In this document: in pieces, positions 5,971 to 30,655 of the stretch | Layout of the letters: each line of letters opens with the position of its first letter | How positions within the stretch are numbered: position 1 is the stretch's first letter | NCBI RefSeq assembly: GCF_000039765.1 | Contig: NC_004459.3 | Coordinates: forward strand, 2,541,127 to 2,573,126 | Length of the DNA stretch: 32,000 nt | Direction: 5' to 3' | Origin: Vibrio vulnificus CMCP6 | GTDB taxonomy: Bacteria > Pseudomonadota > Gammaproteobacteria > Enterobacterales > Vibrionaceae | Made by a program: the position numbers and the translations under genes | The notes under the pieces: model-generated | Seen by the model: the letters and a program-made list of their open reading frames with translations, nothing else | The model's database searches: none | What the model was told of the DNA's origin: nothing

Positions 5971-6322
5971 TTAATCACGTAAAATCAGTGGTTTATGATT
6001 TTTCTTTGTTCCCTCGGCTTTTCAGTTTTGTGTTTGTCGGCAAGCCGGCTTTTTCGAGCGCTGTTTTTCGGACACTTATTCTTTGGCGCTAAAAACTCTG
6101 AGAATTGCCTCAATCAATTCTCGGGCAAGCGCGAAGTTAGGGCGGTTGGCTCAATCAGAAATCCATTTCTAGGTTTTCAAACTTCAAACCAGATGTGCCA
6201 AAATTCCGAGCCTGATTATCAAAACTATGATTCATTTCGGTTTTCTACGTTTTGGCTTTTGTTTGTAAATCAAAGTCGAGTTAATCTTGGTTCTATTAAA
6301 ACGTAACCCATTGAAGCTTAAG
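5971..6322 (+). repeat. gene-less cassette body, family A copy A1
   Basis: Starts GCTTAATCACGTAAAATCAGTGG and ends ..CCCATTGAAGCTTAAG. Alignable by eye to 8 other A copies. No conserved frame. Confidence 0.85.
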
Positions 6323-6448
6323 CATAACAAGGCGTTTAAGTGGGATTTGGCACGCGTGGCATTTTCAGTTTGCGTTGGGTTCAGTAGTTACGGCACTGTG
6401 CGGTAGCTTTTGTATTGCGTGCCTGCACCCCTTAACGCGGCGTTAGGT
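6323..6448 (+). repeat. attC site 10
   Basis: R'' CATAAC, R' GTTAGGT; arm class 3. Confidence 0.9.
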
Positions 6449-6463
6449 GAATTTGGGGAAATA

Positions 6464-6979
6464 ATGCAGCAAATTTTGGAAACTGAACGTTTAATTCTTA
6501 GATCATTTAAGCAGTCTGATGCTGAGCAAGTATCAGTATTAGCTGGTGATAAACGAATCGCAGAAATGACAGCAAACATACCGCATCCATACGAAGTTTC
6601 AGATGCAATTTCATGGATTGAAACACATGAAATTGGTTTTGCCAGCGGAGAGAGTATTGTTTATGCGATTGTACATAAAGAATCGTTAGAGCTTATTGGG
6701 GCCGTGAGTTTGCCAAGCTTAAAAGATGGCCAAGGTATATTAGGTTATTGGTTGGGTGTCGATTTTTGGGGGCAGGGTTATGCGACAGAAGCTTCAAAGG
6801 CGCTAATTGAGTACGCAAAAGAATCTCATGGATTGAGAGAGTTAAAGGTTATGCATCTTGTTGGTAATGCTCGTTCAAAGTCAGTTATCGATAAACTTGG
6901 CGTTACTTACATAGAAAATCAAACACTTCGTATGCAAGGTGGTGAACGCGAGGTTTGTGTTTATATTTCAGCGGTATAA
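6464..6979 (+). CDS. GNAT family N-acetyltransferase (RimJ/RimL-like)
   Basis: Start at MQQILETERLILRSF. Motif ..WGQGYATEA.. and ..NARSKSVIDKLG.. The track start lies inside the attC. Confidence 0.8.
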   Translation: MQQILETERLILRSFKQSDAEQVSVLAGDKRIAEMTANIPHPYEVSDAISWIETHEIGFASGESIVYAIVHKESLELIGAVSLPSLKDGQGILGYWLGVDFWGQGYATEASKALIEYAKESHGLRELKVMHLVGNARSKSVIDKLGVTYIENQTLRMQGGEREVCVYISAV

Positions 6980-6984
6980 ATTCA

Positions 6985-7110
6985 CCTAACAAAGCGTTAA
7001 AGAGGGATTCATGCCGCGTGGCATTTTTGGTATGCGGTATGTTTTGGTGGTGAAAGTGGTCTGCGGGAAGTTGGTTTAGGCGGCATTCACCCCTTAACGC
7101 AGCGTTATGT
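6985..7110 (+). repeat. attC site 11
   Basis: R'' CCTAAC, R' GTTATGT; arm class 1. Confidence 0.9.
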
Positions 7111-7456
7111 TTAATCACGTAAAATCAGTTGTTTGCACTCTTTTTTGTTCACGTAGCTTTCAAGTTTTTCCCTTGTCGGCAAGCTAACTTCAGTGGTCGC
7201 TGTTTTCTGGACTCCTATTCGCGGGCGCGAAAAATTCGGAGAACTGCCTCATTGAAGTCCAGTGTGTTGGCGAGGAGAGTGAGGTGTTCTCAATTCCAAA
7301 GTTAGAGTTCCAGTTTTCGGTTTTTCACGCTAAAACTCAATGTTAGTAAAATCAAATTTATGAGTTAATTCAGTTTTTTAGCTTCTGGTTTTGGTTTTCA
7401 ACGGTAAGTCGAGTTAAGCTCTTGGTATCGTAAAACTTAACCCTTTGAGTCTTAAA
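7111..7456 (+). repeat. gene-less cassette body, family B copy B1
   Basis: Starts TTAATCACGTAAAATCAGTTG and ends ..CCCTTTGAGTCTTAAA. Nearly identical to 19661-20006. Confidence 0.85.
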
Positions 7457-7582
7457 CATAACAAGGCGTTTAAGCGGGATTCATGCCGCGTGGCATTTTT
7501 GGTTTGCAGTGAGTTTTGGTGGTGAAAGTGGTATGCGGAAGCTTGGTTTATGCGGCATTCACCCCTTAACGCGGCGTTATGT
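7457..7582 (+). repeat. attC site 12
   Basis: R'' CATAAC, R' GTTATGT; arm class 1. Confidence 0.9.
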
Positions 7583-8037
7583 TTACTTGTATTTCAAAGG
7601 CTTAAAGGTCTTAGGCTCTGGTTCTTTGTCCCTCTGGTAATTCGTCCCTAGTAGACTCAGCAAATCAGTATTGTTGGTCTAAGTTCTTGAACCACTCAGC
7701 CCGTAAAACATGCCAATGTTCGTGGGTTGCTTCATTGTCAGGTCGTGGCGGTCGGTTTCTTGTTTAACTGGCTTAAAGTCGCTTTTAGGTTCTTTGCCAA
7801 GTAGTATTTCGGCTTGGCAGTAGCCTCGGCAATTCAGCATTGTTTTGCGCTTTGGTTGGAAAGAAAGGGTGCTTGTTGAAACGAGGTCGGGTTGCCTCAT
7901 TGGGCAGGGAAGTGGAATTACAGGTTTTGGGTTAATCGCCTTTGGTGGCCAAGTTGGTTCTTACCTTGTGGTTTGCTTCAGAAAACTAGTTAGAAATCGC
8001 AGTTCTTTCTCAATTAAATCATGTATTTGTGGTAAAA
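7583..8037 (+). other. gene-less cassette body (singleton)
   Basis: Only 65-73 aa ORFs, on opposite strands and overlapping each other. T+G-rich top strand. Termini complement each other across the attC. Confidence 0.6.
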
Positions 8038-8161
8038 CATAACAAGCAATTCAAGCTGATTCGCAACGCTTGGCATTTTTGGTTTGATTCAGCTTTAGTG
8101 TTTACGGCACAATGCTTTAGGTAGGTGGCAGCGTTGCTCACAACTTAATTGGGCGTTAGCA
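8038..8161 (+). repeat. attC site 13
   Basis: R'' CATAAC, R' GTTAGCA; arm class 4-like. Confidence 0.9.
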
Positions 8162-8178
8162 ATCTTAGGAGAGACAGT

Positions 8179-8586
8179 GTGCAACATTTTAACGGATGCA
8201 AATTAGTTGTTCATTGTAACGAGCAAATTCTTACCTATAAAAGAGATAATATTTCTTCCATCTCATACCCAAATTGCTGGGACTTACCTGGTGGCGGTCG
8301 TGAAGGGAACGAAACGCCAGAGGATTGTGCACTAAGAGAATTGAAAGAAGAATTCGGTATCGAACTGTGCCCATCGCGTATTCATTACAAGCAAAAAGTG
8401 GAAAGTCATACAGGCTTTGGTTGTGCGTATTTTCTAGCGGTTACGATAACCGAAAGTGAGTTACGCGAAATTCAGTTTGGCGATGAGGGGCAATATTGGA
8501 AGCTTATGGACATAGAAACGTACTTAGCCCTCTCAGACGCTGTGCCATCCAACCAGCAAAGAATAAGAGGCTATCTCAACCTATGA
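8179..8586 (+). CDS. Nudix hydrolase
   Basis: Nudix box GGGREGNETPEDCALRELKEEFGI. Start set at GTG 8179, 6 nt after AGGAG. The track TTG start lies inside the attC. Confidence 0.7.
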   Translation: MQHFNGCKLVVHCNEQILTYKRDNISSISYPNCWDLPGGGREGNETPEDCALRELKEEFGIELCPSRIHYKQKVESHTGFGCAYFLAVTITESELREIQFGDEGQYWKLMDIETYLALSDAVPSNQQRIRGYLNL

Positions 8587-8595
8587 GTTCGTATT

Positions 8596-8722
8596 GCTAA
8601 CAAGGCGTTTAAGACGGATTCACAACGCTTGGCATTTTCGGTTTGCTTTGAATTTAGTGTTTACGGCACAATGGTTTAGGTTTGGTGGTTGGCGTTGTTC
8701 ACCACTTAACGCGGCGTTATGC
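8596..8722 (+). repeat. attC site 14
   Basis: R'' GCTAAC, R' GTTATGC; arm class 4. Confidence 0.9.
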
Positions 8723-9067
8723 TTAATCACGTAAAATCAATTGGTTGCATCTTTTTTTGCTTTCTCGGCTTTATAATTTTGGTCTTGTCGGCAAGTTGAC
8801 TTCAGTGATCGCTGTTTGCTGGACTTCAATTCGTGGGCGCTAAAAATTCAGAGAGTTGCCTCATTGAAATGCAGTGTTTTGGTGAGGTGAGCGCAGCTTG
8901 CTCAGTTTCAAAGCTAGAGCTTCAACTTTCGTTTCTCACGTTGAGATTCAATGCAAAATAAATCGAATTTATGAGTTAATTCAGTTTTTTAGCCTATGGT
9001 TTTGGTTTGCAAAGGTAAGTCGAGTTAAGCTCTTGGTATCGTAAAACTTAACCCTTTGAGTCTTAAA
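8723..9067 (+). repeat. gene-less cassette body, family B copy B2
   Basis: Same blocks as B1/B3 (TTAATCACGTAAAATCA.., TGTCGGCAAG, ..TATGAGTTAATTCAGTTTTTTAGC.., GTAAGTCGAGTTAAGCTCTTGG) but more diverged. Confidence 0.85.
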
Positions 9068-9192
9068 CATAACAAGGCGTTCAAGAGGGATTCATGCCGC
9101 GTGGCATTTTTGGTATGCAGTAAGTTTTGGTGGTGAAGTGGTCTGCGGAAAGCTGGTTTATGCGGCATTCACCCCTTAACGCGGCGTTATGC
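9068..9192 (+). repeat. attC site 15
   Basis: R'' CATAAC, R' GTTATGC; arm class 1. Confidence 0.9.
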
Positions 9193-9221
9193 CACAAGAC
9201 GTTCAACATGGAGGAAAGGAA

Positions 9222-9848
9222 ATGGATTTAAACGCAATATTACTATTTGTAGTCGCTTGCCTGGCTATCAATATGATACCTGGCCCAGACGTAATCTACA
9301 TCGTCTCAAACACAATGAAAGGCAAGCTTACAACTGGATTTAAAGCTGCAATTGGTCTAGGTGTTGGCTACTTTGTACATACATTAGCTGCGTGTTTAGG
9401 TTTGTCCGCGATAATCCTCAGCTCTGCTGCAGCTTTTAGTGCGGTAAAATGGTTGGGTGCCGCTTACTTAGTATATTTAGGTGTCCAGTCTCTGCTATCT
9501 ATGTGGCGTGGAGGCAGTAAAATAGTGGTTAGTGAAAGTGTTGAAACCAACAAAAATGTATTTATACAAGGCGTTATTGTTAGTGTTTTGAACCCGAAGG
9601 TAGCACTATTCTTCCTTTCATTTTTACCTCAGTTTGTCGATAAATCTGCAGGCTCCGCGTCAATGCAATTATTAGTGCTTGGTTTGCTCTTCAGCGCATT
9701 AGCTACGCTGTGTAACGTTCTCTATGCCTCAGTCGGTAGTTGGGTTTTTAGTCGTTCAAATTCTCAGCGTTATTCACGAGCACTTGAGGGTGTCTCGGGA
9801 GTTCTGCTTATTGGGCTAGCAGGCAAAGTCGCAATCAGTGAGCGCTAG
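9222..9848 (+). CDS. LysE/RhtB family amino-acid exporter
   Basis: Start at MDLNAILLF after GGAGGAAAGG. Multi-TM protein with the N-terminal ..PGPD.. and ..NPK..LFFLSFLPQF.. motifs typical of LysE translocators. Confidence 0.85.
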   Translation: MDLNAILLFVVACLAINMIPGPDVIYIVSNTMKGKLTTGFKAAIGLGVGYFVHTLAACLGLSAIILSSAAAFSAVKWLGAAYLVYLGVQSLLSMWRGGSKIVVSESVETNKNVFIQGVIVSVLNPKVALFFLSFLPQFVDKSAGSASMQLLVLGLLFSALATLCNVLYASVGSWVFSRSNSQRYSRALEGVSGVLLIGLAGKVAISER

Positions 9849-9851
9849 TGG

Positions 9852-9975
9852 CATAACAAACAATTTAAGTGTGATTCAGCACGCGTGGCATTTTTGGTAT
9901 GCGGTGGCTTTGGTGCTGAAGTGCTATGCGGTGGCTTGGTCATTGCGTGCTTCACACCTTAATTGGGCGTTAGCT
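9852..9975 (+). repeat. attC site 16
   Basis: R'' CATAAC, R' GTTAGCT; arm class 5. Confidence 0.9.
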
Positions 9976-10317
9976 TAAAACATTAAAAATCAGTTGTTTG
10001 TGGTTTTTCTTTCTTCCTTCGGCCATTCGCTCTGGTTCCTCGGCAAATCCACATTGTTTGTCAACGTGAGTTTCGAACAGTTGCCTCAATTGAGTTTTGG
10101 GACTGCGCGAGGTTCGCCAGTTTGGTGCAAAGTCGCTTTGGAGGTTTTGTTTTAGCTTTGAATTTTCCGAAAGTGATTTATCAAAATTTTCGGGTTTTCA
10201 AATCGCATGAAAGGCAACAAAGTTTGAGCCAATTCGGGTTTCAAAGCTTAAGCGGTTTGTTGGTTTTCCAAATCGGTTTAATCTCAGGCTTGGTAAATCT
10301 AAGGTGCTGAAATTTAA
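9976..10317 (+). repeat. gene-less cassette body, family C (distant relative of A/B)
   Basis: Shares the 5' blocks TAAAAATCAGTTGTTTGTGGTTTTTCTTT, TCGGCAA, AGTTGCCTCAAT and GCGCGAGGTT with family A. The 3' half is diverged. Length 342 bp. Confidence 0.65.
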
Positions 10318-10442
10318 GCTAACAAACTGCTTAAGCGGGATTCGCAATGCGTGGCATTTTCAGTATGCGGTGAGTTTCGTGATTAAAGCGGTGTGCGGTA
10401 GCTTTCGTAGTGCATTGCTCACCCCTTAGCAGGGCGTTATGC
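10318..10442 (+). repeat. attC site 17
   Basis: R'' GCTAAC, R' GTTATGC; arm class 2 variant (CGCAATGCG / GCATTGCTCACCCC). Confidence 0.9.
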
Positions 10443-10794
10443 TTAATCACCTAAAATCAGTGGTTTATGGTTTTTCTTTGTTCCCTCGGCTTGTTAGTTT
10501 CGAGTTTGTCGGCAAGTCAGCTTCATTGGGTGCTATTTTCTGGACATCAATTCTTTGGCGCTGGAAATTCAGAGAATTGCCTCAATCAATTTTCAGGTAA
10601 GCACGAGGATAGGGCGGCTGGCTCAATCAGAAATCAGTTTTCAGTTCTTAGTTGCCCAAGCTTGAAATGTTAAAAGTCCAAGTCTGCCTTTCAAAACTAT
10701 GAGTCATTTCGGTTTTCTAAGTTTTGGCTTTTGTTTGTAAATCAAAGTCGGGTTAATCTTGTTTTGAGTAAAACGTAACCCATTGAAGCTTAAG
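10443..10794 (+). repeat. gene-less cassette body, family A copy A2
   Basis: Family A 5' and 3' blocks are present. The central ~60 bp is unrelated to other copies. Confidence 0.85.
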
Positions 10795-10920
10795 CATAAC
10801 AAGGCGTTCAAGAGGGATTCATGCCGCGTGGCATTTTTAGTATGCGGTTAGTTTTTGTGGTGAAAGTGGTTTGCAGAAAGCTGGTTTAAGCGGCATTCAC
10901 CCCTTAACGCAGCGTTATAA
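10795..10920 (+). repeat. attC site 18
   Basis: R'' CATAAC, R' GTTATAA; arm class 1. Confidence 0.9.
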
Positions 10921-10934
10921 CCTAATGGGAAATA

Positions 10935-11411
10935 ATGAACTTAGTAGATTTTCAAAAAACGGATTTTCACCTGCTTATCGAATGGATCGACTCAGATGAG
11001 TTGAACTATTTATGGGGTGGTCCAGCTTATACTTTTCCGCTGACTTCTGAACAGATCATTGCCCATTGTACCAAGGAAGAAGTATTTCCTTACTTGCTAA
11101 AAGTAAGTGGTCAGAATGCTGGGTTTGTGGAGTTGTATAAAGTCACCAACGAGCATTATCGAATTTGTCGTGTATTTATCTCAAACTCTTATCGTGGGCG
11201 AGGCTTATCAAAATCTATGCTTATGTTATTAATAGATAAAGTCCGGTCAGATTTTTCTGCGACTACGCTTAGTTTAGGCGTTTTTGAACATAACACTGTA
11301 GCTAGAAAGTGCTATGAATCTTTAGGTTTTAATGTCATTGGGATTGAATCTGGCACCAGATCTTTTGATGGTCAATTATGGGGTTTGGTGCGAATGGAAA
11401 AACGGTTATAA
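10935..11411 (+). CDS. GNAT family N-acetyltransferase
   Basis: 158 aa. Motif A-like YRGRGLSKSM and ..HNTVARKCYESLGF.. Stop lies in R''. Confidence 0.8.
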   Translation: MNLVDFQKTDFHLLIEWIDSDELNYLWGGPAYTFPLTSEQIIAHCTKEEVFPYLLKVSGQNAGFVELYKVTNEHYRICRVFISNSYRGRGLSKSMLMLLIDKVRSDFSATTLSLGVFEHNTVARKCYESLGFNVIGIESGTRSFDGQLWGLVRMEKRL

Positions 11412-11532
11412 CAAGGCGTTCAAGTGGGACTTGGCACGCGTGGCATTTCCGGTTTGCGGTTTGTTTAGTGGTTAAGGCGTGATGCGGTCACGTTTGTAGA
11501 GCGTGCCTGCGCCCCTTAACGCAGCGTTATGC
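11407..11532 (+). repeat. attC site 19
   Basis: R'' TATAAC, R' GTTATGC; arm class 3. Confidence 0.9.
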
Positions 11533-11875
11533 TTAATCACGAAAAATCAGTGGTTTATCATTTTTCTTTGTTCCCTAGGTTTGTTCGTTCGAGTTTGTCG
11601 GCAAGTTAGCTTTATTGGGCGCTGTTTTCCGGACAATTATTCTTTGGCGCTGAAAATTCAGAGCGTTGCCTCAATCAATTCTTGAGCAAGCGCGAGGTTA
11701 GGGCATCTGGCTCAATCAGCAATTTGATCTTATTTTTTGGGTTTTAGCAGCCAAATTTCAAAGTCCGATTTTCAAAACTATGAGTCATTTCGGTTTTCTA
11801 CGTTTTGGCTTTTGTTTGTAAATCAAAGTCGAGTTAATCTTGTTTCTAGTAAAGCGTAACCCATTGAAGCTTAAG
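11533..11875 (+). repeat. gene-less cassette body, family A copy A3
   Basis: Family A blocks are present. The ATG seen in other copies reads ATC here. Confidence 0.85.
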
Positions 11876-12001
11876 CATAACAAGGCGTTCAAGTGGGATT
11901 CATGCCGCGTGGTATTTTTGGTGTGCGGTGAGTTTTGGTGGTGAAAGTGGTCTACGGAAAGTTGGTTTAAGCGGCATTCACCCCTTAACGCGGCGTTATA
12001 C
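11876..12001 (+). repeat. attC site 20
   Basis: R'' CATAAC, R' GTTATAC; arm class 1. Confidence 0.9.
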
Positions 12002-12015
12002 AATAAAGAGTAAAA

Positions 12016-12789
12016 ATGAGTACAATAAAAGAGTCAGAAATGGAAAAAGACAAGAATTTAACCCCAGAAGAATTGAAAGAGCGAGCGATTCGTTTCTACA
12101 ACCGTTACGGAAACGAGCTTGAACAGGTTAGAGAGTTGCTTCAAATTCGGTTAACGCAGTTAGCTCATGCATACACTATAAATCACAATCTTCCTCCTGA
12201 AGCCATTACGGTTTCAACACGAGTTAAGAGCCTAGGTAGCTTCCTAAAGAAACTGGAAAAAAAAGGATTCCCTCAGTTCTATTTGCCAACAGAGGTTATT
12301 CAAGACTTAATTGGTGCGCGAGTAATATGTTGGTTTATAGATGATTGTAATGGAATTATGGATTTCATTTCTTCGTCGAATCACCTCGATGTGAAACCTG
12401 AATCAATTGAAGACTACATTACAAACCCTAAGCCTTCTGGTTACCGTTCTATACATCTTCAAGCTCGCGTTGCTTATGACAGTATTAGCAAGGCAAAAGG
12501 CAGCGAAAGTGTTGAAATAAAAAATGAATCAATGCTCTGCGAGGTTCAAATTCGAACGAAGATTCAAGACGCATGGGGTGATATGACACACGAGTTTCAC
12601 TATAAGGCGAAAATAGTTGGTGTAGAAAATGCGATGTTAGAGACAATGCTATCTGAACTATCTAAACGCCTGAGCAATGAAGATAATTCACTATTAACTT
12701 TGAGGGATGCTTATCAAGGGTTGATAGATGAAAAGCAAAAGTCTGGTAAAAGAACTGGCTTCATTGCGAACCCCGAAAATATTGTATAA
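12016..12789 (+). CDS. RelA/SpoT-domain protein (small alarmone synthetase homologue)
   Basis: 257 aa with synthetase-domain landmarks: TRVKSLGSFLKKL, DLIGARVICWF, KPSGYRSIHL, EVQIRTKIQDAWGDMTHEFHYK. Confidence 0.8.
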   Translation: MSTIKESEMEKDKNLTPEELKERAIRFYNRYGNELEQVRELLQIRLTQLAHAYTINHNLPPEAITVSTRVKSLGSFLKKLEKKGFPQFYLPTEVIQDLIGARVICWFIDDCNGIMDFISSSNHLDVKPESIEDYITNPKPSGYRSIHLQARVAYDSISKAKGSESVEIKNESMLCEVQIRTKIQDAWGDMTHEFHYKAKIVGVENAMLETMLSELSKRLSNEDNSLLTLRDAYQGLIDEKQKSGKRTGFIANPENIV

Positions 12790-12909
12790 CAATCTGTTTA
12801 AGAGTGATTCGCAACGCTTGGCATTTTTGCTATGCGTTGCGTTTTGTGTTTAAGGTGGTATGCGGTAGCATCGGTATTGCGTTGCTCACACCTTAACAGG
12901 GCGTTATGC
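12785..12909 (+). repeat. attC site 21
   Basis: R'' TATAAC, R' GTTATGC; arm class 2. Confidence 0.9.
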
Positions 12910-13254
12910 TTAATCACGTAAAATCAGTGGTTTATGTTTTTCTCTGCTCCCTTGGCTGATTGGTTTTGTGCTCATCGGCAAGTTAGCTTCATTGGGCGCT
13001 GTTTTCTGGACATCAATTCTTTGGCGCTGAAAATTCAGAGTGTTGCCTCAGTCAATTTTCGGGTAAGCGCGAGGTTAGTGCGGCTAGCTCAATCAGTACT
13101 TCGAACTTAGGTTTCTGAGTTTTAGCAGCCAAATTTCAAAGCCTGATTTTCAAAACTTATGAGTCATTTCGGCTTTCTACGTTTTGGCTTTTGTTTGTAA
13201 ATCAAAGTCGAGTTAATCTTGGTTTAGGAATAGTTTAACCCATTGAAGCTTAAG
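12910..13254 (+). repeat. gene-less cassette body, family A copy A4
   Basis: Family A blocks are present. A 1-nt deletion directly after the ATG breaks the frame seen in other copies. Confidence 0.85.
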
Positions 13255-13380
13255 CATAACAAGGCGTTCAAGAGGGATTCATGCCGCGTGGCATTTTTGG
13301 CATGCGGTGAGTTTTGGTGGTGAAAGTGGTCTGCGGAAAGCTGGTTTATGCGGCATTCACCCCTTAACGCAGCGTTAGAA
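13255..13380 (+). repeat. attC site 22
   Basis: R'' CATAAC, R' GTTAGAA; arm class 1. Confidence 0.9.
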
Positions 13381-13395
13381 GTTTTGGGAATAAAT

Positions 13396-13848
13396 ATGGG
13401 ATGCAGAAGAGAACTGGGTAGTATCGCAAGCGGTATTATTGGTTCGTTTTGTAGTAGAAACAATGATGTTGATGGCTATTGGGGTATAGGTAAGCTATAC
13501 CTGCTCGTAGAGCACCTTCAAAGTAAGTGTGTTTCTATAAACCTTTGCTCTCAACAGATTGCCCCATATTCTCCGCACTTTGACCTCATGACTGAGAGCT
13601 ATTCAAAGATGTTTAAGGGGCTACTTATAAAACGCTCAATCCCACTTGAATGGGTTAGCTCAGCATACGTTTACGTTGAATTTGAAGCTGATTATGAGGA
13701 GCGTCATCACACTTGGAGGAGGGCATTTGGAAATCCGTGCAATCTAGTTTGTGTAGTCGTAGATGATAATGGCAAAAGTCATGTTGCTCGTGCGTATACA
13801 AGTTGTTTCCCACATGACGCGAAAAGGGAAAGCCGGAGCACTAGGTGA
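13396..13848 (+). CDS. hypothetical protein
   Basis: Start moved to MGCRREL, just downstream of the attC. 150 aa. No family recognised. Confidence 0.5.
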   Translation: MGCRRELGSIASGIIGSFCSRNNDVDGYWGIGKLYLLVEHLQSKCVSINLCSQQIAPYSPHFDLMTESYSKMFKGLLIKRSIPLEWVSSAYVYVEFEADYEERHHTWRRAFGNPCNLVCVVVDDNGKSHVARAYTSCFPHDAKRESRSTR

Positions 13849-16913: not shown

Positions 16914-16936
16914 TTATCAGAGGAAATGTCTCAATA

Positions 16937-17470: not shown

Positions 17471-17471
17471 G

Positions 17472-18562: not shown

Positions 18563-18565
18563 AAG

Positions 18566-19525: not shown

Positions 19526-19535
19526 GCAATGTGAA

Positions 19536-19660
19536 CATAACAAGGCGTTCAAGTGGGATTCATACCGCGTGGCATTTTTGGTATGCGGTTGGTTCTGGTG
19601 GTGAAAGTGTCTGCGGAAAGTTGGTTTATGCGGCATTCACCCCTTAACGCGGCGTTATGT
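19536..19660 (+). repeat. attC site 31
   Basis: R'' CATAAC, R' GTTATGT; arm class 1 variant. Differs from attC 30 at 19629 and 19651. Confidence 0.9.
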
Positions 19661-20006
19661 TTAATCACGTAAAATCAGTTGTTTGCACTCTTTTTTGTTC
19701 ACGTAACTTTCAAGTTTTTCCCCTGTCGGCAAGCTAACTTCAGTGGTCGCTGTTTTCAGGACTCCTATTCGCGGGCGCGAAAAATTCAGAGAATTGCCTC
19801 ATTGCAATCCAGTGTGTTGGCGAGGTGAGTGAAGTGTTCTCAATTTCAATGTTAGAGTTCCAGTTTTCGGTTTTTCACGCTAAAACTCAATGTTAGTAAA
19901 ATCAAATTTATGAGTTAATTCAGTTTTTTAGCTTCTGGTTTTGGTTTTCAATGGTAAGTCGAGTTAAGCTCTTGGTATCGTAAAACTTAACCCTTTGAGT
20001 CTTAAA
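19661..20006 (+). repeat. gene-less cassette body, family B copy B3
   Basis: About a dozen substitutions and no indels relative to 7111-7456, by eye. Confidence 0.85.
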
Positions 20007-20131
20007 CATAACAAGGCGTTCAAGCGGGATTCATGCCGCGTGGCATTTTTGGTTTGCGGTGAGTTTTGTGGTGAAAGTGGTGTGTGGAAACTTGGTTTAG
20101 GCGGCATTCACCCCTTAACGCGGCGTTAGGG
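20007..20131 (+). repeat. attC site 32
   Basis: R'' CATAAC, R' GTTAGGG; arm class 1. Confidence 0.9.
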
Positions 20132-20188
20132 CTCATGGCTAGTCAGTTTTAAAATTAAGTTTGTCGTTTGAATGAAGGATTAAGTTAG

Positions 20189-20578: not shown

Positions 20579-20595
20579 AAGATGAATCCAAGCGC

Positions 20596-20719
20596 CCTAA
20601 CAAACGCTTTAAGACGGATTCGCAACGCGTGGCATTTGTGGTTTGCGGTAAATTTAGTGTTTTAGGTGGTATGCGAAAGCATCGTATTGCGTTGCTCACC
20701 ACTTAAGCGAGCGTTATGC
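20596..20719 (+). repeat. attC site 33
   Basis: R'' CCTAAC, R' GTTATGC; arm class 2 variant. Confidence 0.9.
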
Positions 20720-21064
20720 TTAATCATGTAAAATCAGTGGTTTATGGTTTTTCTTTGTTCCCTTGGCTGATTGGTTTTGTGCTTGTCGGCAAGTTGACTT
20801 CATTGGGCGCTGTTTTTCGGACACTTATTCTTTGGCGCTGAAAATTCAGGGAGTTGCCTCAGTCAATTTTCGGGTAAGCGAGAGGTTAGGGCGGTTGGCT
20901 TAATCAGCAATTTGATCTTAGGTTTTTGAGTTTTATCGGCCAAATTTCAAAGTCCGATTTTTAAAACTATGAGTCATTTCTGTTTTCTATGTTTTGGCTT
21001 TTGTTTGTAAATCAAAGTCGAGTTAATCTTGGTTCTATTAAAACGTAACCCATTGAAGCTTAAG
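20720..21064 (+). repeat. gene-less cassette body, family A copy A5
   Basis: Family A blocks present throughout. Confidence 0.85.
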
Positions 21065-21190
21065 CATAACAAGGCGTTCAAGAGGGATTCATGCCGCGTG
21101 GCATTTTTGGTATGCATTGAGTTTTGGTGGTGAAGGTGGTCTGCGGAAAGTTGGTTTATGCGGCATTCACCCCTTAACGCGGCGTTATGT
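21065..21190 (+). repeat. attC site 34
   Basis: R'' CATAAC, R' GTTATGT; arm class 1. Confidence 0.9.
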
Positions 21191-21540: not shown

Positions 21541-21550
21541 GCAATGTGAA

Positions 21551-21675
21551 CATAACAAGGCGTTCAAGTGGGATTCATACCGCGTGGCATTTTTGGTATG
21601 CGGTTGGTTCTGGTGGTGAAAGTGTCTGCGGAAAGTTGGTTTAGGCGGCATTCACCCCTTAACGCAGCGTTATGC
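21551..21675 (+). repeat. attC site 35
   Basis: R'' CATAAC, R' GTTATGC; arm class 1 variant; same sequence as attC 30 up to the crossover G. Confidence 0.9.
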
Positions 21676-22021
21676 TTAATCTCGTAAAATCAGTGATTTA
21701 GTGTTTTTCTTTGTTCCCTCGGCTTGTTAGTTTCGAGTTCGTCGGCAAGTCAGCTTCATAGGGCGCTATTTTCTGGACATCAATTCTTTGGCGCTGGAAA
21801 TTCAGAGGATTGCCTCAATCAGTTTTCGCGTAAGCGTGAGGTTAGGGCAGTTGGCTCATTCAGAATTTTGAACTTAGGTTTTTGAGTTTTAGTAGCCAAA
21901 TTTCAAAGTCAGATTTTCAAAAATCATGAGTCATTTCAGTTTTTTAGGTTTTGCCTTTTGTTAACTAATCCTAGCCGAGTTAATCTTGGTTTTGGTAAAA
22001 ATGTGGGCGTTGAAGCTTAAG
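21676..22021 (+). repeat. gene-less cassette body, family A copy A6 (most diverged A copy)
   Basis: Family A 5' two-thirds is conserved. The 3' end is diverged (..TTGTTAACTAATCCTAGCCGAGTTAATCTTGG..). Confidence 0.8.
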
Positions 22022-22147
22022 CATAACAAAGCGTTAAAGTGGGATTTGGCACGCGTGGCATTTTTAGTTTGCGTTGAGTTCGGTGGTTACGGCACTATGC
22101 GGTAGCTTTTGTATTGCGTGCCTGCACCCCTTAACGCGGCGTTATAA
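22022..22147 (+). repeat. attC site 36
   Basis: R'' CATAAC, R' GTTATAA; arm class 3. Confidence 0.9.
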
Positions 22148-22161
22148 CGAAATAGGTAATT

Positions 22162-26391: not shown

Positions 26392-26515
26392 ACTAACAAA
26401 ACGCTTAAGACGGACTAACAAACGCGTGGCATTTTTGGTTTGGTCGAGTTGGGTGTGTAAGGTGGTCAGTTGAGTTGAGTGGTAGGTTTGTTAGCCACTT
26501 AGCGTGGCGTTATGC
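26392..26515 (+). repeat. attC site 42
   Basis: R'' ACTAAC, R' GTTATGC; unique arms (CTAACAAAC / GTTTGTTAG). Confidence 0.9.
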
Positions 26516-26860
26516 TTAATCAAGTAAAATCAGTGGTTTATGGTTTTTCTTTGTTCCCTCAGCTTGTCAGTTTGATGTTTGTCGGCAAGTTGGCTTTTGT
26601 GTGCGCTATTTTCTGGACATCCATTCTTGGTCGCTAAAAATTCTGAGAGTTGCCTCAATCAATTTTCGGGCAAGCGCGAGGTTAGGGTGGCTGGCTCAAT
26701 CAGCAATTTGATCTTAGGTTTTTGAGTTTTAGCGGCCGAATTTCAAAGCCCAGATTTTCAAAACTATGAGTCATTTCGGTTTTCACGTTTTGGCTTTTGT
26801 TTGTAAATCAAAGTCGAGTTAATCTTGTTTCCAGAAAAACGTAACCCATTGAAGCTTAAG
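26516..26860 (+). repeat. gene-less cassette body, family A copy A7
   Basis: Family A blocks present throughout. Confidence 0.85.
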
Positions 26861-26986
26861 CATAACAAGGCGTTCAAGAGGGATTCATGCCGCGTGGCAT
26901 TTTTGGTATGTGGTGAGTTTTGGTGGTGAAAGTGGCTTGCGGAAGGTTGGTTTAGGCGGCATTCACCCCTTAACGCAGCGTTATAT
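26861..26986 (+). repeat. attC site 43
   Basis: R'' CATAAC, R' GTTATAT; arm class 1. Confidence 0.9.
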
Positions 26987-27422: not shown

Positions 27423-27548
27423 TATAACAAAGCGTTTAAGACGGATTCCCAACGCTTGGCATTCTCAGTTTGTTTCAACTTTAGTGTTTACGGCTCAATG
27501 CCTTAAGTTTGGTGGCCGCGTTGCTCACCACTTAACGCGGCGTTATGC
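27423..27548 (+). repeat. attC site 44
   Basis: R'' TATAAC, R' GTTATGC; arm class 4. Confidence 0.9.
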
Positions 27549-27892
27549 TTAATCACGTAAAATCAGTGGTTTATGGTTTTTCTTTGTTCCCTTGGCTTAT
27601 TGGTTTTGTGCTTGTCGGCAAGTCGGTTTCATTGGGCGCTGCTTTTCGGACACTTATTCTTTGGCGCTGAAAATTCAGAGAGTTGCCTCAATCAATTTTC
27701 AGGTAAGCGCGAGGTTAGGGTAGCTGGCTCAATCAGCAATTTGATCTTAGGTTTTGAGTTTTAGCAGCCGAATTTCAAAGCCCGATTTTCAAAACTATGA
27801 GTCCTTTCGGTTTTCTACGTTTTGGCTTTTGTTTGTAAATCAAAGTCGAGTTACTCTTGGTTCTAGTAAAACGTAAGCCATTGAAGCTTAAG
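27549..27892 (+). repeat. gene-less cassette body, family A copy A8
   Basis: Family A blocks present throughout. Confidence 0.85.
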
Positions 27893-28017
27893 CATAACAA
27901 GGCGTTCAAGAGGGATTCATGCCGCGTGGCATTTTTGGTATGCGTTGGTTTTAGTGTTTAAGGTGGTATGCAGCGGCTTTGGTATTGCGTTGCTCACCCC
28001 TTAACAGGGCGTTATGT
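27893..28017 (+). repeat. attC site 45, chimeric (class 1 left arm, class 2 right arm)
   Basis: Left arm GATTCATGCCGCGTGGCA and right arm GCGTTGCTCACCCCTTAACAGGGCGTT. L-box pairing drops from 7/7 to about 3/7. Confidence 0.8.
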
Positions 28018-28037
28018 AACAAGGAGAGTTTGGCTAA

Positions 28038-28544
28038 ATGGAAGTAATATCTGAAAGGCTACGGATGAAGCCATTATCGGGAAATGACTTGTCTTTATTT
28101 CTACAACTCCATACAAACCCAAGTGTCATTTCGCTCTGTTTCGATGAACTGCCAAAGTTAGAAATTGAGAGTAAATTTAAATCTCGATTAGCATCTTGGT
28201 TTGTAGATTCGGAGCATTGGTTATGTTTAGTTGTTGTCGAGTCCACAACGAATAAAGCAGTAGGTATAACAGGTTTTTGTGTTAACGATTCTGTTGCTGA
28301 AGTTGGGTTTATGTTTTTACCCGAATATCATGGGCTCGGGTATGGTACAGAGTCACTGCAAGCCCTCATAAATTATTCAATGTCAGAGTTCGGCATCGAT
28401 AAATACAGTGCAGTTGTCACCGAGGGCAACATTGGTTCCGAAAAGGTACTTACAAAAGTGGGTTTTGTGCTCGATAGGATAGTGCCTCAAGCTTATGAAA
28501 TTGGTGGTCATTTGTACGCAGACCATGTCTACAAATATGCGTAA
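28038..28544 (+). CDS. GNAT family N-acetyltransferase (second copy of the 430-936 cassette)
   Basis: Differs from 430-936 by two substitutions (P53S at 28194, V168A at 28540). Confidence 0.8.
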   Translation: MEVISERLRMKPLSGNDLSLFLQLHTNPSVISLCFDELPKLEIESKFKSRLASWFVDSEHWLCLVVVESTTNKAVGITGFCVNDSVAEVGFMFLPEYHGLGYGTESLQALINYSMSEFGIDKYSAVVTEGNIGSEKVLTKVGFVLDRIVPQAYEIGGHLYADHVYKYA

Positions 28545-28552
28545 AATTGTTA

Positions 28553-28678
28553 CATAACAAGGCGTTCAAGAGGGATTCATGCCGCGTGGCATTTTTGGTT
28601 TGCAGTGAGTTTTAGTGGTGAAAGTGGTCTGCGGAAGGTTGGCTTAGGCGGCATTCACCCCTTAACGCAGCGTTATTG
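28553..28678 (+). repeat. attC site 46
   Basis: R'' CATAAC, R' GTTATTG; arm class 1; identical to attC 2 up to the crossover point. Confidence 0.9.
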
Positions 28679-28691
28679 CGCAGAGGCAAAA

Positions 28692-28985
28692 ATGAAGCAT
28701 AAACAAAGAGAGCTGTTAGCATATATTGAGTTGGAAAGTGGTACTGTTTTGATTGATATCGTCAAACTGACTCGAAACGGTCGCTCTTATTATTTTCAAG
28801 GTAAAAGATGGTTACGCAATCAATATGGATTGGGTTGCGATGATTGCACATCAGAATCTGGGGATAAGCTAAATATTTCCATTTTGAGTCGAAGACATGC
28901 TCCTAAGTGGATTGAAGGCAAGGTGTTGCGTGTATCTGAAAGGGCAAAAGAACGGTATGAATTTTGGCTATCAAATGGACGCTGA
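28692..28985 (+). CDS. hypothetical protein
   Basis: Start moved to MKHKQRELL downstream of the attC. 97 aa. No family recognised. Confidence 0.5.
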   Translation: MKHKQRELLAYIELESGTVLIDIVKLTRNGRSYYFQGKRWLRNQYGLGCDDCTSESGDKLNISILSRRHAPKWIEGKVLRVSERAKERYEFWLSNGR

Positions 28986-29008
28986 CAGTGGCGCCGTTAG
29001 CTCAGCGC

Positions 29009-29133
29009 AATAACAAACTGTTCAAGAGGGATTCACAACGCGTGGCATTTTTACTATGCGTTGGTTTTAGTGTTTACGGTGATATGCAGTAGCTCTAGTA
29101 TTGCGTTGTTCACCCCTTAACAGAGCGTTATGC
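29009..29133 (+). repeat. attC site 47
   Basis: R'' AATAAC, R' GTTATGC; arms CACAACGCG / GCGTTGTTCACCCC. Confidence 0.9.
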
Positions 29134-29427
29134 GCCAAAAATTGGATTCACATCCATGCTTTTGTGGAGGATACGGATAATTTCAATATTTTGACTGCCG
29201 ATCTGACGATAAAATATTACGTGGCTTCCTTGTGGAAACTTTCTGTAGCCATCGCGAATTTCGTCACAGGCTTTACCAATGTCAGGATTTTCGGCTAACA
29301 GCCAAAATGAGTCATCAAACTGTTTTAGATAAATATTTCGCTGTTCGCGACCCCAACGTCGAGAGGTAAACAAGGCTATATCTCTTAAATCAGATTTCGC
29401 CTTGTTAGTTAACTGAAATGGTCTCAT
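29128..29427 (-). CDS. parE: ParE-family type II toxin
   Basis: 99 aa. ..DLRDIALFTSRRWGREQRNIYLKQFDDSFWLLAENPDIGK..FPQGSHVIFYR..IEIIRILHKSMD.. is typical ParE and, from memory, close to Vibrio superintegron ParE. ATGA overlap with parD. Confidence 0.9.
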   Translation of the reverse strand: MRPFQLTNKAKSDLRDIALFTSRRWGREQRNIYLKQFDDSFWLLAENPDIGKACDEIRDGYRKFPQGSHVIFYRQIGSQNIEIIRILHKSMDVNPIFGA

Positions 29428-29666
29428 TTTCTCTCTTCGCTATCTAACTCATTGATAAACGAATCAAGGTCATAATCCGCAACTCCACTTTCTTCGCCCT
29501 CAACAAGCAACTGGCGTAAAGTGTTCATTTTAGTTTCTTGGGTTTCAAGTAAACGTAAAGCAGAACGAATGACTTCACTTGCAGAGCCATAGCGACCGCT
29601 TTGGATTTGATTAGCAATAAAACCGTCAAAATGGTCACCCAAAGTAATACTAGTGTTCTTAGCCAT
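29424..29666 (-). CDS. parD: ParD-family type II antitoxin (RHH)
   Basis: 80 aa. MAKNTSITLGDHFDGFIANQIQSGRYGSASEVIRSALRLLE.. is typical ParD/COG3609. GAGGA SD. Confidence 0.9.
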   Translation of the reverse strand: MAKNTSITLGDHFDGFIANQIQSGRYGSASEVIRSALRLLETQETKMNTLRQLLVEGEESGVADYDLDSFINELDSEERK

Positions 29667-29679
29667 AACTTAGTCCTCA

Positions 29680-29725
29680 ATACCAATAGATACCTAATTA
29701 TGGTATTAGTTGGGCTTGGATGCAA
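29680..29725 (-). promoter_or_regulatory. candidate parDE promoter and operator
   Basis: Minus strand reads TTGCAT (29725-29720), 17-nt spacer, CATAAT (29702-29697). ATACC/GGTAT repeats at 29680-29684, 29690-29694 and 29702-29706. Confidence 0.5.
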
Positions 29726-29729
29726 GGCG

Positions 29730-29856
29730 CATAACAAAGCGTTTAAGCCGGATTCGCAACGCATGGCATTTTTGGTCTGGCTTAGCTTTAGTGTTTACGG
29801 CACAATGTTTTAGGTTAGGTGGTCTGCGTTGCTCACCACTTAACGCGGCGTTATAT
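29730..29856 (+). repeat. attC site 48
   Basis: R'' CATAAC, R' GTTATAT; arms CGCAACGCATGG / GCGTTGCTCACCAC. Confidence 0.9.
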
Positions 29857-29872
29857 GATTTGATGAGAATCC

Positions 29873-30181
29873 ATGAGAAAAACAAAAAACGTAGTCGAAA
29901 ATCTGGACGTGAGTTTTAGGACAACATGTCCAATATGTAATAAAAAGCTAACAAGCCAAGGGTTTGAACAGCATAGAAAAATGCATCATAAAAACCTGAG
30001 ACATGCGCAATTCGAGCAGTTAGTGATAGACGCGATTCGCTCTGGTAAGTTAACCGTAAAGATCTTTGACGCAGTAAACCCAAGTTTGAATTCTGCGACA
30101 AGAAAGCTACAAGATGTTAAGCATGCAAGTAGAAACAATTTTTACCGATTGCAGCAAGGTGGAAAGGTAAGTCCGAAATAA
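29873..30181 (+). CDS. hypothetical protein with C2H2-like zinc-finger motif
   Basis: 102 aa, basic. CPICNKKLTSQGFEQHRKMHH. Confidence 0.5.
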   Translation: MRKTKNVVENLDVSFRTTCPICNKKLTSQGFEQHRKMHHKNLRHAQFEQLVIDAIRSGKLTVKIFDAVNPSLNSATRKLQDVKHASRNNFYRLQQGGKVSPK

Positions 30182-30185
30182 ATCA

Positions 30186-30310
30186 TATAACAAACAATTC
30201 AACAGTGATTCGCAACGCTTGGCGCTCTCACTTCGGGTTGAATTTAGTGTTTACGGCGCAGCCTTCAAGTTCAGTGTATGCGCTGCTCACACGTTAATTG
30301 GGCGTTATGC
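30186..30310 (+). repeat. attC site 49
   Basis: R'' TATAAC, R' GTTATGC; arms CGCAACGC / GCGCTGCTCACAC (one mismatch). Confidence 0.85.
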
Positions 30311-30655
30311 TTAATCACGTAAAATCAGTGGTTTATGGTTTTCTTTGTTCCCTTAGCTTTTCAGTTTGGTGTATGTCGGTAAGTTGACTTCATTGGGCGC
30401 TGTTTTTCGGACACTTATTCTTTGGCGCTGAAAATTCAGAGAGTTACCTCAATCAATTTTCAGGTAAGCGAGAGGTTAGGGTGGCTGGCTCAATCAGCAA
30501 TTTGATCTTAGGTTTTTGAGTTTTAGCGGCCGAATTTCAAAGCCCAGATTTTCAAAACTATGAGTCATTTCGGTTTTCTACGTTTTGGCTTTTGTTTGTA
30601 AATCACAGTCGAGTTAATCTTGTTTTCAGAAAAACGTAATCCATTGAAGCTTAAG
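30311..30655 (+). repeat. gene-less cassette body, family A copy A9
   Basis: Family A blocks are present. A T-run one nt shorter after the ATG leads to an early stop in that frame. Confidence 0.85.

Follow-up and report, generated by a model that had tools for sequence, protein, structure and literature searches.

Thirteen members of an abundant non-coding cassette family in the Vibrio vulnificus CMCP6 superintegron and their possible weak promoter activity

The window analysed here, a stretch of 32,000 nucleotides (NC_004459.3, positions 2,541,127 to 2,573,126), is part of the superintegron of V. vulnificus CMCP6 and matches CP037931.1, chromosome 1 of that strain. It contains 50 attC right ends and thus 49 complete cassettes, 13 of which (27%) carry a body of about 345 bp belonging to one family, in good agreement with a prior inspection of the letters alone (the sequence-only reading), which had assigned a quarter of all cassettes in the window to it. 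The 13 bodies delimited in that reading (342-352 bp) were all confirmed, as was their division into nine A copies, three B copies and one C copy, and a BLAST scan of the window with the subfamily consensuses returned exactly these 13 and none in addition. All lie on the plus strand. Subfamily A comprises the cassettes at 5965..6442 (body 5965-6322 plus an attC of the 'TTGGCACGCGTGGCA' type), 10437..10914 (immediately after the C copy), 12904..13374 (carrying TGGACA-16-GAAAAT), 20714..21184 (the representative copy in this analysis), 21670..22141 (with a divergent 3' end) and 30305..30775 (in which two boxes read TCGGTAA and TTACCTCA), together with those at 11527..11995, 26510..26980 and 27543..28011; the last three, and the subfamily B cassettes at 7105..7576, 8717..9186 and 19655..20125, were placed by coordinates, alignment, attC ends and the BLAST scan. 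The single subfamily C cassette, at 9970..10436, has its own attC type. The true start of each cassette was found to lie 6 nt upstream of the start given earlier, at the TTA of the G|TTA crossover, and reads TTATGC in A and B but TTAGCT in C. Counted from this TTA, a body of about 351 bp is followed by an attC of about 120 bp, the layout of an ordinary integron cassette. Family copies do sit upstream of ORF cassettes, as had been remarked, but no more than expected by chance, since three quarters of the cassettes carry ORFs.

The 13 bodies can be aligned end to end, with a mean column identity of 76%. The C copy (body start 9976 in the earlier numbering) had been thought to share only 5' blocks with the others, which proved wrong: it is collinear with A and B through to the 3' end, keeping TTTGAGCCAATTCGG, AAATCGGTTTAATCT and CTGAAATTTAA with the 32-nt and ~35-nt spacings seen in A/B, and lacks 27 nt inside the interval between the TCGGCAA and TTGCCTCA boxes. 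Conserved elements mapped on the representative copy are a consensus match for IHF, WATCARNNNNTTR (AATCAGTGGTTTA), at 20732..20744 (a predicted site, in AAAATCA, the longest block without variation), the module TCGGCAA - 61 nt - TTGCCTCA at 20786..20861, and a 3' box, AAGTCGAGTTAATCT, at 21015..21029, with a GTTRRRY-like core and lying 35 nt short of the body's 3' end.

The bodies are gene-less and conserved at the nucleotide level. No conserved ORF was found on either strand across the family copies, as the sequence-only reading had concluded, and the frame-breaking changes on which it had relied (ATG to ATC in the 11533 copy, one G lost after the ATG in the 12910 copy and a shorter T-run in the 30311 copy) are all present in the alignment, and single-nucleotide indels between copies occur in T-runs. 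Searches of the bodies against Pfam and NCBIfam gave no matches, and BLASTX and BLASTP were negative for such cassettes in both published studies (PMC1382264, PMC11014356). That the family encodes a protein, perhaps small or frameshifted, or consists of pseudogenes that decayed recently, is accordingly very unlikely. Mechanical ORFs do occur in single copies (103 aa at 5995-6306, in the first cassette, and 68 aa at 10467-10673), others of 72-84 aa on the minus strand extend into the attC in individual copies, and a minus-strand stretch of about 30 codons (NEATHE.WHVLRLERFKNLSRQ) is open in many P-type copies; across copies, however, no frame stays open on the plus or the minus strand. The 103-aa ORF is not conserved in other copies, roughly one in four of the 36 A copies has its ATG missing or out of frame, the minus frames contain conserved stops, and two plus frames are poor in stops merely because the strand is A-poor. 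The spacers of 34, 61 and 63 nt mean that the same boxes would fall in different frames in different subfamilies. A weak period-3 signal in one alignment block of A copies (P = 0.037) was lost on correction for the 11 substitution tests performed, none of which was significant after multiple testing.

A role as small or structured RNA, also put forward earlier, was unsupported. Rfam gave no hit to the family, either at the gathering threshold or with E values allowed up to 1, folding was no better than that of shuffled sequence (MFE z-scores of -0.06 in sense and -0.6 in antisense), and RNAalifold on 41 diverse copies yielded a single invariant 5-bp pairing, the only helix common to the subfamilies, with zero covariation; nor did compensatory pairs exceed those in slid controls. 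None of these results supports a conserved RNA structure, and no conserved terminator was found inside the body. It is thus very improbable that the body gives rise to a functional non-coding transcript, whether an sRNA or a cis-regulatory RNA, comparable to the integron-borne sRNA-Xcc1 of Xanthomonas, even though the bodies' own weak promoters, at least, produce transcripts and small RNAs were explicitly left possible by Blanco et al. (PMC11014356). The G+T-rich sense strand permits G-U pairing and has more predicted pairs than the antisense strand, and an sRNA using short seed pairing would need little structure.

An internal promoter was a further suggested role, and the sequence-only reading had mentioned that promoter activity is reported for some gene-less cassettes of Vibrionaceae superintegrons. 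Direct experimental support exists for close paralogs: Blanco et al. (2024, NAR 52:2961, PMC11014356) tested gene-less cassettes V1-V13 of V. vulnificus FDAARGOS_663 as promoters, and all 13 belong to the present family, V1, V4, V7, V8, V10 and V12 of their Table S1 being A-type and V2, V3, V5, V6, V9, V11 and V13 B-type. Ten of these were compared with the 12 A/B copies of the window and were 82-91% identical over the whole body. In that study, sense GFP rose 5-20-fold for 11 of the 13 cassettes, and V13, the strongest member, raised the dfrB9 MIC 2-4-fold; the A-type V7 and V12 were inactive. Superfamily relatives P1, P4, F2 and F3 were active, and superfamily member C7 was inactive. The activity was weak (about PcW level, on a multicopy plasmid) and was assayed in V. 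cholerae and E. coli, outside the native array; 5'RACE ends mapped to dispersed positions (~106-261), and spurious transcription was raised by the authors themselves. Promoter activity is hence measured for close paralogs, and the window copies probably share it. A sigma-70 scan of the stretch 5900-13400 returned 12 sites against 12.9 expected by chance, with no consensus promoter at a fixed position; among the seven of the 13 copies in that stretch, only the one at 12904..13374 reached the threshold, through its TGGACA-16-GAAAAT.

The family is not confined to this array. In four further vulnificus-type array stretches it accounts for about one fifth to one third of the cassettes, similar to the window. 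Over 20 Vibrio species carry it, as do plasmid records from Vibrio, and there is one occurrence in Pseudoalteromonas. Family copies in V. cholerae, V. mimicus and V. proteolyticus still carry the vulnificus-type attC, which points to recent whole-cassette transfer and provides a lead that attC and body move together from one species to another. Such abundance in every V. vulnificus-type array examined (see also PMC1382264), the broad range and the retained attC would equally be expected of a selfish or neutral passenger, as already proposed by Boucher et al. (PMC1382264): a cassette frequently duplicated and transferred by integrase because it is short, harmless and equipped with an efficient attC, its promoter activity an AT-rich by-product and the similarity of its copies the outcome of recent spread and gene conversion rather than selection. 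In line with this, the median identity among A bodies (86.6%) is no higher than that found in the middle of the attC, where constraint is loose (87.3%), variants are mosaic among copies, and Blanco et al. (PMC11014356) remarked on AT-richness and scattered TSSs. Against it, the same ordered boxes are kept between A and B (66% identity) and in the P, E and D types, which are alignable only by profile; in the 13-copy set, chosen without a search pattern, the columns that do not vary lie in clusters (longest run 7, P = 0.007); the WATCARNNNNTTR match is kept in 92 of 93 A/B/C/D/F copies, including all 24 A/B copies not selected by search pattern; and useless cassettes are readily lost through excision. 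We regard a purely selfish origin as a serious but rather unlikely explanation.

The ordered TCGGCAA...TTGCCTCA module is shared with other cassette types, which suggests, as a lead, that the family forms a branch of a superfamily spread across the Vibrionaceae. A weak promoter offers no obvious explanation for boxes conserved along the whole body or for a genus-wide superfamily. The IHF consensus match, a second lead, occurs at the identical place in all 13 window copies and at body position 13-25 in the 92 copies mentioned above, with another IHF-type match near +185 in most A copies. Together with the box pair, this putative bend site might form a cis-acting protein-binding module shaping local architecture, which would regulate promoter activity or modulate folding or recombination of the flanking attC sites. 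The window holds 22 matches to the IHF consensus against 4.4 expected, 18 of them within the family at fixed positions; the never-varying columns (T21 C22 A23 ... T29 T30) are the specified consensus positions, while NNNN varies (TGGT, TTGG, TCGG, TAGG, TTGT); the motif AATCA averages 4.4 per A copy, where 0.27 would be expected; and a 512-bp variant has the TCGGCAA...TTGCCTCA module duplicated as a unit. Nevertheless, the site is a consensus match, the 13 matches are not independent because the copies are homologous, and a single degenerate 13-nt match has a chance of about 2% of arising in a 350-bp element. The P and E418 types do not have the site; the search pattern accounts in part for the lack of variation in the two boxes across species (copies not selected by it keep them in 24/31 and 22/31 cases); box spacings of 34, 61 or 63 nt do not keep helical phase; and no integron paper mentioning integration host factor was among the top matches listed in a full-text literature search. 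We therefore consider such a module, including its supposed effects, improbable.

On balance, we favour the interpretation that the 13 cassettes are members of an abundant non-coding V. vulnificus superintegron family which spreads well and has weak sense promoter activity. Their bodies, encoding no protein and no detectably structured RNA, would supply weak sense-oriented activity of the sigma-70 type, and as transcripts would continue past the attC and into the cassette that follows, regions far along a long array would depend only in part on the Pc promoter. Duplication and reshuffling by the integrase would keep the copy number high, as would the passing of entire cassettes, body and attC together, from one Vibrio species to another. 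Promoter activity may also be a selected trait and so contribute to the conservation.

The family is already known, having been described in 2006, and close relatives were shown to have weak internal promoters in 2024; the repeats of the window are a correct rediscovery. Among more distant parallels, the sRNA-Xcc1 cassette of Xanthomonas campestris (Chen et al. 2011, as cited in PMC8876359) is likewise a non-coding integron cassette with regulatory output, but yields a defined trans-acting sRNA, whereas the window family has no Rfam match or conserved structure. Integrons of oral Treponema also contain attC-bounded cassettes that lack an ORF and have promoter activity in a dual-reporter plasmid (Tansirichaiya et al. 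2019, cited by PMC8876359 and PMC11014356); compared by description, their promoters are sigma-70-consensus-like, with antisense activity described, while the window family has no conserved consensus promoter. Boucher et al. (2006, BMC Evol Biol 6:3, PMC1382264) reported a non-coding family accounting for 45 of 219 cassettes in the same genome, CMCP6, that resembles ours in its absence of coding signal, very high copy number (13/49 here), close homologs in other vibrios and proposed roles (selfish element, promoter or RNA); subfamilies, conserved boxes and a link to the ~430-bp/~512-bp types are not described there. As its text gives no sequences or coordinates, we infer the identity of the two families from abundance and genome rather than from alignment. 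The closest counterparts are V1-V13 (PMC11014356), which are direct paralogs with the same attC type and experimentally weak sense promoters, although they come from another strain and comprise A and B types alone, the C type being absent from the assayed set. A word search of the main text of that paper found none of the words paralog, family of, identical or similarity applied to its cassettes, so it appears silent on the 13 being one family. Three points, offered as leads, go beyond both papers: the superfamily module, the IHF consensus match and the joint travel of attC and body.

The window carried 50 right ends of a ~120-bp attC repeat (...CCCCTTAACGCGGCG|TTA), bounding 49 complete cassettes. 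The gene-less family accounted for 13 of these (27%), in agreement with the quarter given in an earlier, sequence-only reading of this DNA. All 13 copies, named here by a body start lying 6 nt downstream of the true start, opened with TTATGC or TTAGCT immediately after the ...GCG of the preceding attC, and ended with a ~120-bp repeat running from CATAAC... on the left to ...CCCCTTAACGCGGCG|TTA on the right. The units are delimited as integron gene cassettes, each beginning with the TT of the upstream attC's G|TTRRRY crossover site and ending with its own attC. The intI gene was located outside the window; adjacency to an integrase was seen in a locus from another assembly (L130), where an array of the same type with seven family copies began beside a 320-aa PF00589 tyrosine recombinase and infC-rpmI-rplT. 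The single minimum free energy (MFE) structure computed with DNA parameters for the attC bottom strand at 21065-21187 had z = -1.0 and lacked the canonical R''/R' and L''/L' pairing; the inverted CATAAC/GTTAT ends of the attC were discernible by eye. The attC type of most A and B copies contained a 5-bp hairpin, ATGCC GCGT GGCAT, followed by TTTTT, which was flagged by a terminator scan (for example at 7011-7024, 7483-7496, 9094-9107 and 10821-10834) but is too weak to be called a terminator.

The array was interrupted by insertion sequence (IS) copies: a gene for an IS-type transposase (HTH and rve domains) was found on the minus strand at 17502-18518, inserted within a 1777-bp cassette (16908-18684), and a second copy at 31306-31941 (minus strand), at the end of the window. 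One cassette contained a ParE/ParD toxin-antitoxin pair (29128-29666, minus strand); such pairs are usual in superintegron cassettes. Three 485-bp cassettes (18685-19169, 19170-19654 and 21185-21669), each with a 117-aa ORF and, in the same relative place, a 52-aa minus-strand ORF, look like a second paralogous cassette family with two members in tandem. The V. vulnificus CMCP6 chromosome 1 record CP037931.1 encodes the 378-aa protein of the window (22162-23298) and carries in tandem duplicate (L001, 15733-18075) a unit of two cassettes (661 + 455 bp, with a 168-aa GNAT protein and a 97-aa ORF) found once in the window (28012-29127), so that the window is not identical to that CMCP6 assembly. 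Seven of the 12 gaps between successive family copies in the window equalled 2 (P = 0.002, in a test picked after looking); a regular alternation of family and ORF cassettes was rejected, as only two of 14 gaps equalled 2 in four independent array stretches (the new part of L127, L128, L129 and L130).

The 13 bodies were 342-352 bp long and could be aligned end to end with a mean column identity of 76%; their coordinates proved correct, and BLAST with subfamily consensuses recovered exactly these copies in the window. The division into subfamilies A, B and C (nine, three and one copies) was also confirmed. The C copy had been described as sharing only 5' blocks, which was wrong: it was collinear with A and B through the 3' end, its chief difference being a 27-nt deletion between two conserved boxes. 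Order and spacing of the blocks were tight: AAAATCA and TCGGCAA stood 47 to 49 nt apart, TCGGCAA and TTGCCTCA 61 nt apart (34 in C), and GAGG followed after another 20 nt; farther on, TATGAGTCATTTCGG was separated from AAGTCGAGTTAATCT by 32 nt, with ~35 nt left to the end. Invariant columns were clustered in this 13-copy alignment, whose copies were not selected by the cross-species search pattern; the longest run was the seven columns of AAAATCA (P = 0.007 by column permutation).

A coding function was assessed on both strands. Six-frame translation of all copies gave no frame that was open across copies on either strand, and stops in the minus-strand frames were conserved. Among 36 A-type copies from several species, most of columns 10-210 were free of stops in two plus frames simultaneously; this follows from the low A content of the strand (T 38%, A 23%, G 22%, C 17%) and does not point to a gene. 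In about a quarter of the same copies, the ATG (body position ~25) was mutated or trailed by a 1-nt change in the T-run. The three frame-breaking changes reported for the window copies were found by alignment to be as described. Of the period-3 tests on 11 gap-free blocks from four subfamilies, one reached a nominal P of 0.037 and ten were non-significant, and eight mechanical ORFs had no Pfam or NCBIfam match; the 103-aa ORF at 5995-6306 was not conserved in other copies. Minus-strand coding, suggested by the peptide AEG[TR]KKNHK[PQ]LI that the A and C copies have in common and that ends at the TAA of the crossover site, was rejected because this TAA ends every cassette on that strand, the similarity is one of nucleotide identity and conserved stops lie upstream. 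An intact ancestral gene was discarded as well, the 106-aa minus-strand ORF of the ~418-bp type found in other species spanning attC, being of low complexity and being disrupted in sister copies, as was a small peptide (MSHFGFLRFGFCL) from the conserved TATGAGTCATTTC box, which in B reads M-S-stop and in C shrinks to a frame of 6 codons. It is thus exceedingly improbable that the family represents a gene or pseudogene, and the proposals that no reading frame is conserved, and that the element is real, non-coding and conserved at the nucleotide level, are upheld.

A structured RNA, another role put forward from the sequence, was not supported. Searches against Rfam 15 returned no hits at the gathering threshold over the whole window, and none at E up to 1 over 19600-22150, a region with three copies. 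The MFE of a representative body was no better than that of shuffled sequences (z = -0.06 sense, -0.6 antisense). RNAalifold on 41 non-redundant copies of the A, B, F and C types (F being a relative beyond the window subfamilies) found a single pairing, GGCAA/UUGCC, whose 5 bp were invariant and whose covariation term was 0, and its mirror on the antisense strand; within subfamilies, consensus folds had no more compensatory pairs than controls in which partners were slid by 1-3 columns. A 9-bp hairpin (GUCGGCAAU/AUUGUCGGC) in P-type copies, a ~430-bp relative, was unconserved in A-type copies and had no covariation. A functional RNA is highly improbable; an unstructured sRNA is still conceivable.

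For promoter activity, published reporter data bear on close paralogs. Blanco et al. (2024; PMC11014356) took V. vulnificus FDAARGOS_663 as the source of 13 synthesised gene-less cassettes (V1-V13), which they tested in V. cholerae on a dual-reporter plasmid. From Supplementary Table S1, V1, V4, V7, V8, V10 and V12 were read as A-type and V2, V3, V5, V6, V9, V11 and V13 as B-type. In a comparison with ten of these V cassettes, the 12 A and B window copies were at least 82-91% identical over ~350 nt to V3, V4, V7 or V12, values that are lower bounds because the supplement text was machine-read; the C copy had no tested counterpart. Sense GFP was raised 5-20-fold, about the strength of PcW, by 11 of the 13 cassettes and not by V7 or V12, an antisense signal of ~2.5-fold was obtained from four, and the strongest, V13, raised the MIC of a promoterless dfrB9 only 2-4-fold; 5'RACE ends were spread over positions ~106-261, the authors mentioning spurious initiation in AT-rich DNA (PMC11014356). 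They also stated that promoter activity was not predictable in silico (Blanco et al. 2024, PMC11014356). This statement agrees with a sigma-70 consensus scan covering 7.5 kb and seven window copies, which found 12 sites against 12.9 expected and none at a position common to the copies. Several specific candidates were rejected: TGGACA-N16-GAAAAT as a fixed promoter was present in only some copies and did not separate the active V1 and V4 from the inactive V12; TAAAAT at position 17-22 as a -10 element had no -35 partner and did not fit the published 5' ends; a sigma-54-like TGGCGC...TTGC had the wrong spacing; and the idea that single bases make V7 (TTGCCTAA) and V12 (GCGCTAGG) inactive was set aside since the machine-read supplement is visibly error-prone.

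The internal promoter role suggested earlier therefore stands in part, as reporter activity in 11 of 13 A- and B-type paralogs, and fails for V7 and V12; for the window copies it would apply by analogy. The most likely account, narrowly favoured on balance, is that of an efficiently spreading, non-coding cassette whose promoter activity is weak and in the sense direction; confidence is limited because the activity is weak, is missing from some near-identical copies and is known only outside the native host. A purely selfish or neutral passenger is a possibility of lesser weight. Within A, body identity (86.6%) was close to that of the central attC (87.3%), so that the body as a whole shows no mark of tighter constraint, as such a passenger would have it; the clustered invariant columns speak against such a passenger. 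Between A and B, bodies were 66% and attC sites 92% identical, the latter as within each subfamily, and divergence of body and attC was uncorrelated; homogenisation seems to have acted on the A and B attC sites separately from the bodies. Copies in V. cholerae, V. mimicus and V. proteolyticus retained a vulnificus-type attC even behind a preceding attC of the cholerae type, which indicates that whole cassettes moved between species.

The IHF consensus WATCARNNNNTTR was matched perfectly at body positions 13-25 in all 13 window copies, the match beginning with the AAAATCA block. The window held 22 such matches against 4.4 expected, 18 of them within the family, and the never-varying columns were the specified positions of the consensus. 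The match was present in 92 of 93 copies of the A, B, C, D and F types, including all 24 A and B copies not selected by pattern, and was lacking in the P and E types. This putative IHF site, a consensus match within homologous sequences, is a lead towards a cis-acting DNA module bound by protein; as an explanation of the family, such a module is unlikely, the fixed position arguing for it and the P and E types against.

Species-representative genomes were scanned with an ordered three-block pattern demanding TCGGCAA, TTGCCTCA and a T-rich decamer, which 10 of the 13 window copies matched. At least 120 loci were found; the matches listed comprised about 75 Vibrio integron contigs, one Pseudoalteromonas contig and ~45 chance matches in unrelated MAGs and genomes. 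Because the pattern required these three blocks, their invariance in the cross-species set is partly by construction, and conservation was re-measured on copies found by BLAST only. BLAST over the fetched loci gave at least 127 copies, with A, B or C types in V. floridensis (at least 27 copies), V. mimicus, V. cholerae, V. metoecus, V. proteolyticus, V. fujianensis, V. cincinnatiensis and V. anguillarum. An array of Pseudoalteromonas fenneropenaei (L086, NZ_JBHSTJ010000017.1, minus strand from offset 2076) contained one A-type body, nearest to the 12910 copy, which followed a GNAT cassette with a non-Vibrio attC and whose own attC was reduced to CATAAC; in the study of Boucher et al. (2006; PMC1382264), non-coding cassettes had shown no homologs beyond vibrios. 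Four Vibrio plasmid records had copies at 86-90% identity and a fifth at 69%; records of this kind included NZ_CP016323.1, NZ_CP135970.1 (L131), NZ_CP010886.1 and NZ_CP065219.1, and one 40.8-kb V. vulnificus plasmid record had 21 family places. MK672802.1 (L132), filed as a V. anguillarum phage, had three distant copies in surroundings that resemble a cassette array, with a Phd/RelE pair. Such plasmid and phage records may be misfiled array fragments.

Longer relatives were found in other species, namely types of ~430 bp (P), ~418 bp (E) and ~512 bp (D), the last carrying the TCGGCAA...TTGCCTCA module twice. A profile built from A, B, F and C copies matched these types over profile positions ~38-191, with E-values of 5e-19 to 4e-10 for D, about 1e-9 for E and 1e-7 to 8e-4 for P, and matched none of the ~45 unrelated pattern-bearing loci, so that the relationship extends past the blocks used for selection. 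Abutting profile hits (positions 1-200, then 41-351) in V. mimicus (L012, 6621-7136) and V. floridensis (L021, 2890-3404) are further examples of the variant with a duplicated 5' module. A circular permutation between A and P types (sharing AATCAC..AAA.TCAGTGG) was dropped, as the word-match plot was too noisy in T-rich sequence. Among the cassettes of Blanco et al. (2024), P1 and P4 were P-type, C7, used there as a promoterless control, was D-like, and F2 and F3 showed the TCGGCAA...TTGCCTCA module by eye, which would place about 18 of the 30 in one superfamily. The V. cholerae N16961 cassettes C6, C8, C9 and C10 in their Table S1 were mutually paralogous, all starting TTAGCTTCTTAAAG..AAAATCATCAAAATC, and form a second non-coding family, separate from that of the window.

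A broader reading can be offered only tentatively, and is doubtful: that most gene-less cassettes of Vibrionaceae are branches of one old, selected, non-coding superfamily with a common protein-bound cis-module, and not AT-rich leftovers that lack any kinship. The module would consist of a T-rich tract, TCGGCAA, a 34-63-nt spacer and GTTGCCTCAWT, to which the vulnificus/cholerae branch would add a 5' IHF-type site. As a regulatory or architectural element kept by integrons, it might steer how the cassettes of a long array are expressed or recombine. To this superfamily would belong, as branches, the A, B and C types of V. vulnificus, the V. parahaemolyticus/Harveyi type of ~430 bp (with P1 and P4 among its members), the duplicated type of ~512 bp (with C7 of V. 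cholerae), and probably F2 and F3 of V. fischeri.

Real questions in the field are how the hundreds of superintegron cassettes distant from Pc are expressed, and why as many as half of those in V. vulnificus are gene-less; this family is the main contributor to the gene-less fraction. The conserved boxes (AAAATCA/TT, TCGGCAA, TTGCCTCA and GTTAATCT) offer concrete targets for mutagenesis, and the inactive V7, V12 and C7 are natural controls. The words 'paralog', 'family of', 'identical' and 'similarity' are absent from the main text of Blanco et al. (2024), which thus does not appear to note the paralogy of its 13 cassettes; as 13 of the cassettes assayed there are paralogs from a single family, and some 18 of all 30 come from one superfamily, the generality of the published conclusion changes.

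The family itself is already known, and with its existence (2006) and weak promoter activity (2024) both published, no new kind of element is added. Boucher et al. (2006; PMC1382264) classed 107 of 219 CMCP6 cassettes as non-coding, noted that non-coding cassettes lack BLASTX matches and have homologs of >80% identity in other vibrios, and proposed that they are selfish or supply promoters or RNAs. Their rule demanded no BLASTX match, no ORF >150 bp and no synonymous-site pattern among homologs; the window family lacks family matches and a period-3 pattern, and has single-copy mechanical ORFs >150 bp, none of them conserved. Blanco et al. (2024) used as criterion no annotated gene and no ORF >210 bp, with which most bodies comply; the 5971 copy has the 103-aa ORF, and in several copies minus-strand ORFs of 72-84 aa extend into attC. 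The paralogous non-coding family of Boucher et al. (2006; PMC1382264) made up about one fifth of the CMCP6 array (45 of 219 cassettes), relative to 13 of 49 for the window family in the same genome, a likeness of genome and abundance, the text of that paper holding no family sequences or coordinates to align. The promoter cassettes of Blanco et al. (2024) provide the likeness at the level of sequence, the 12 A and B copies of the window being homologous to those assayed.
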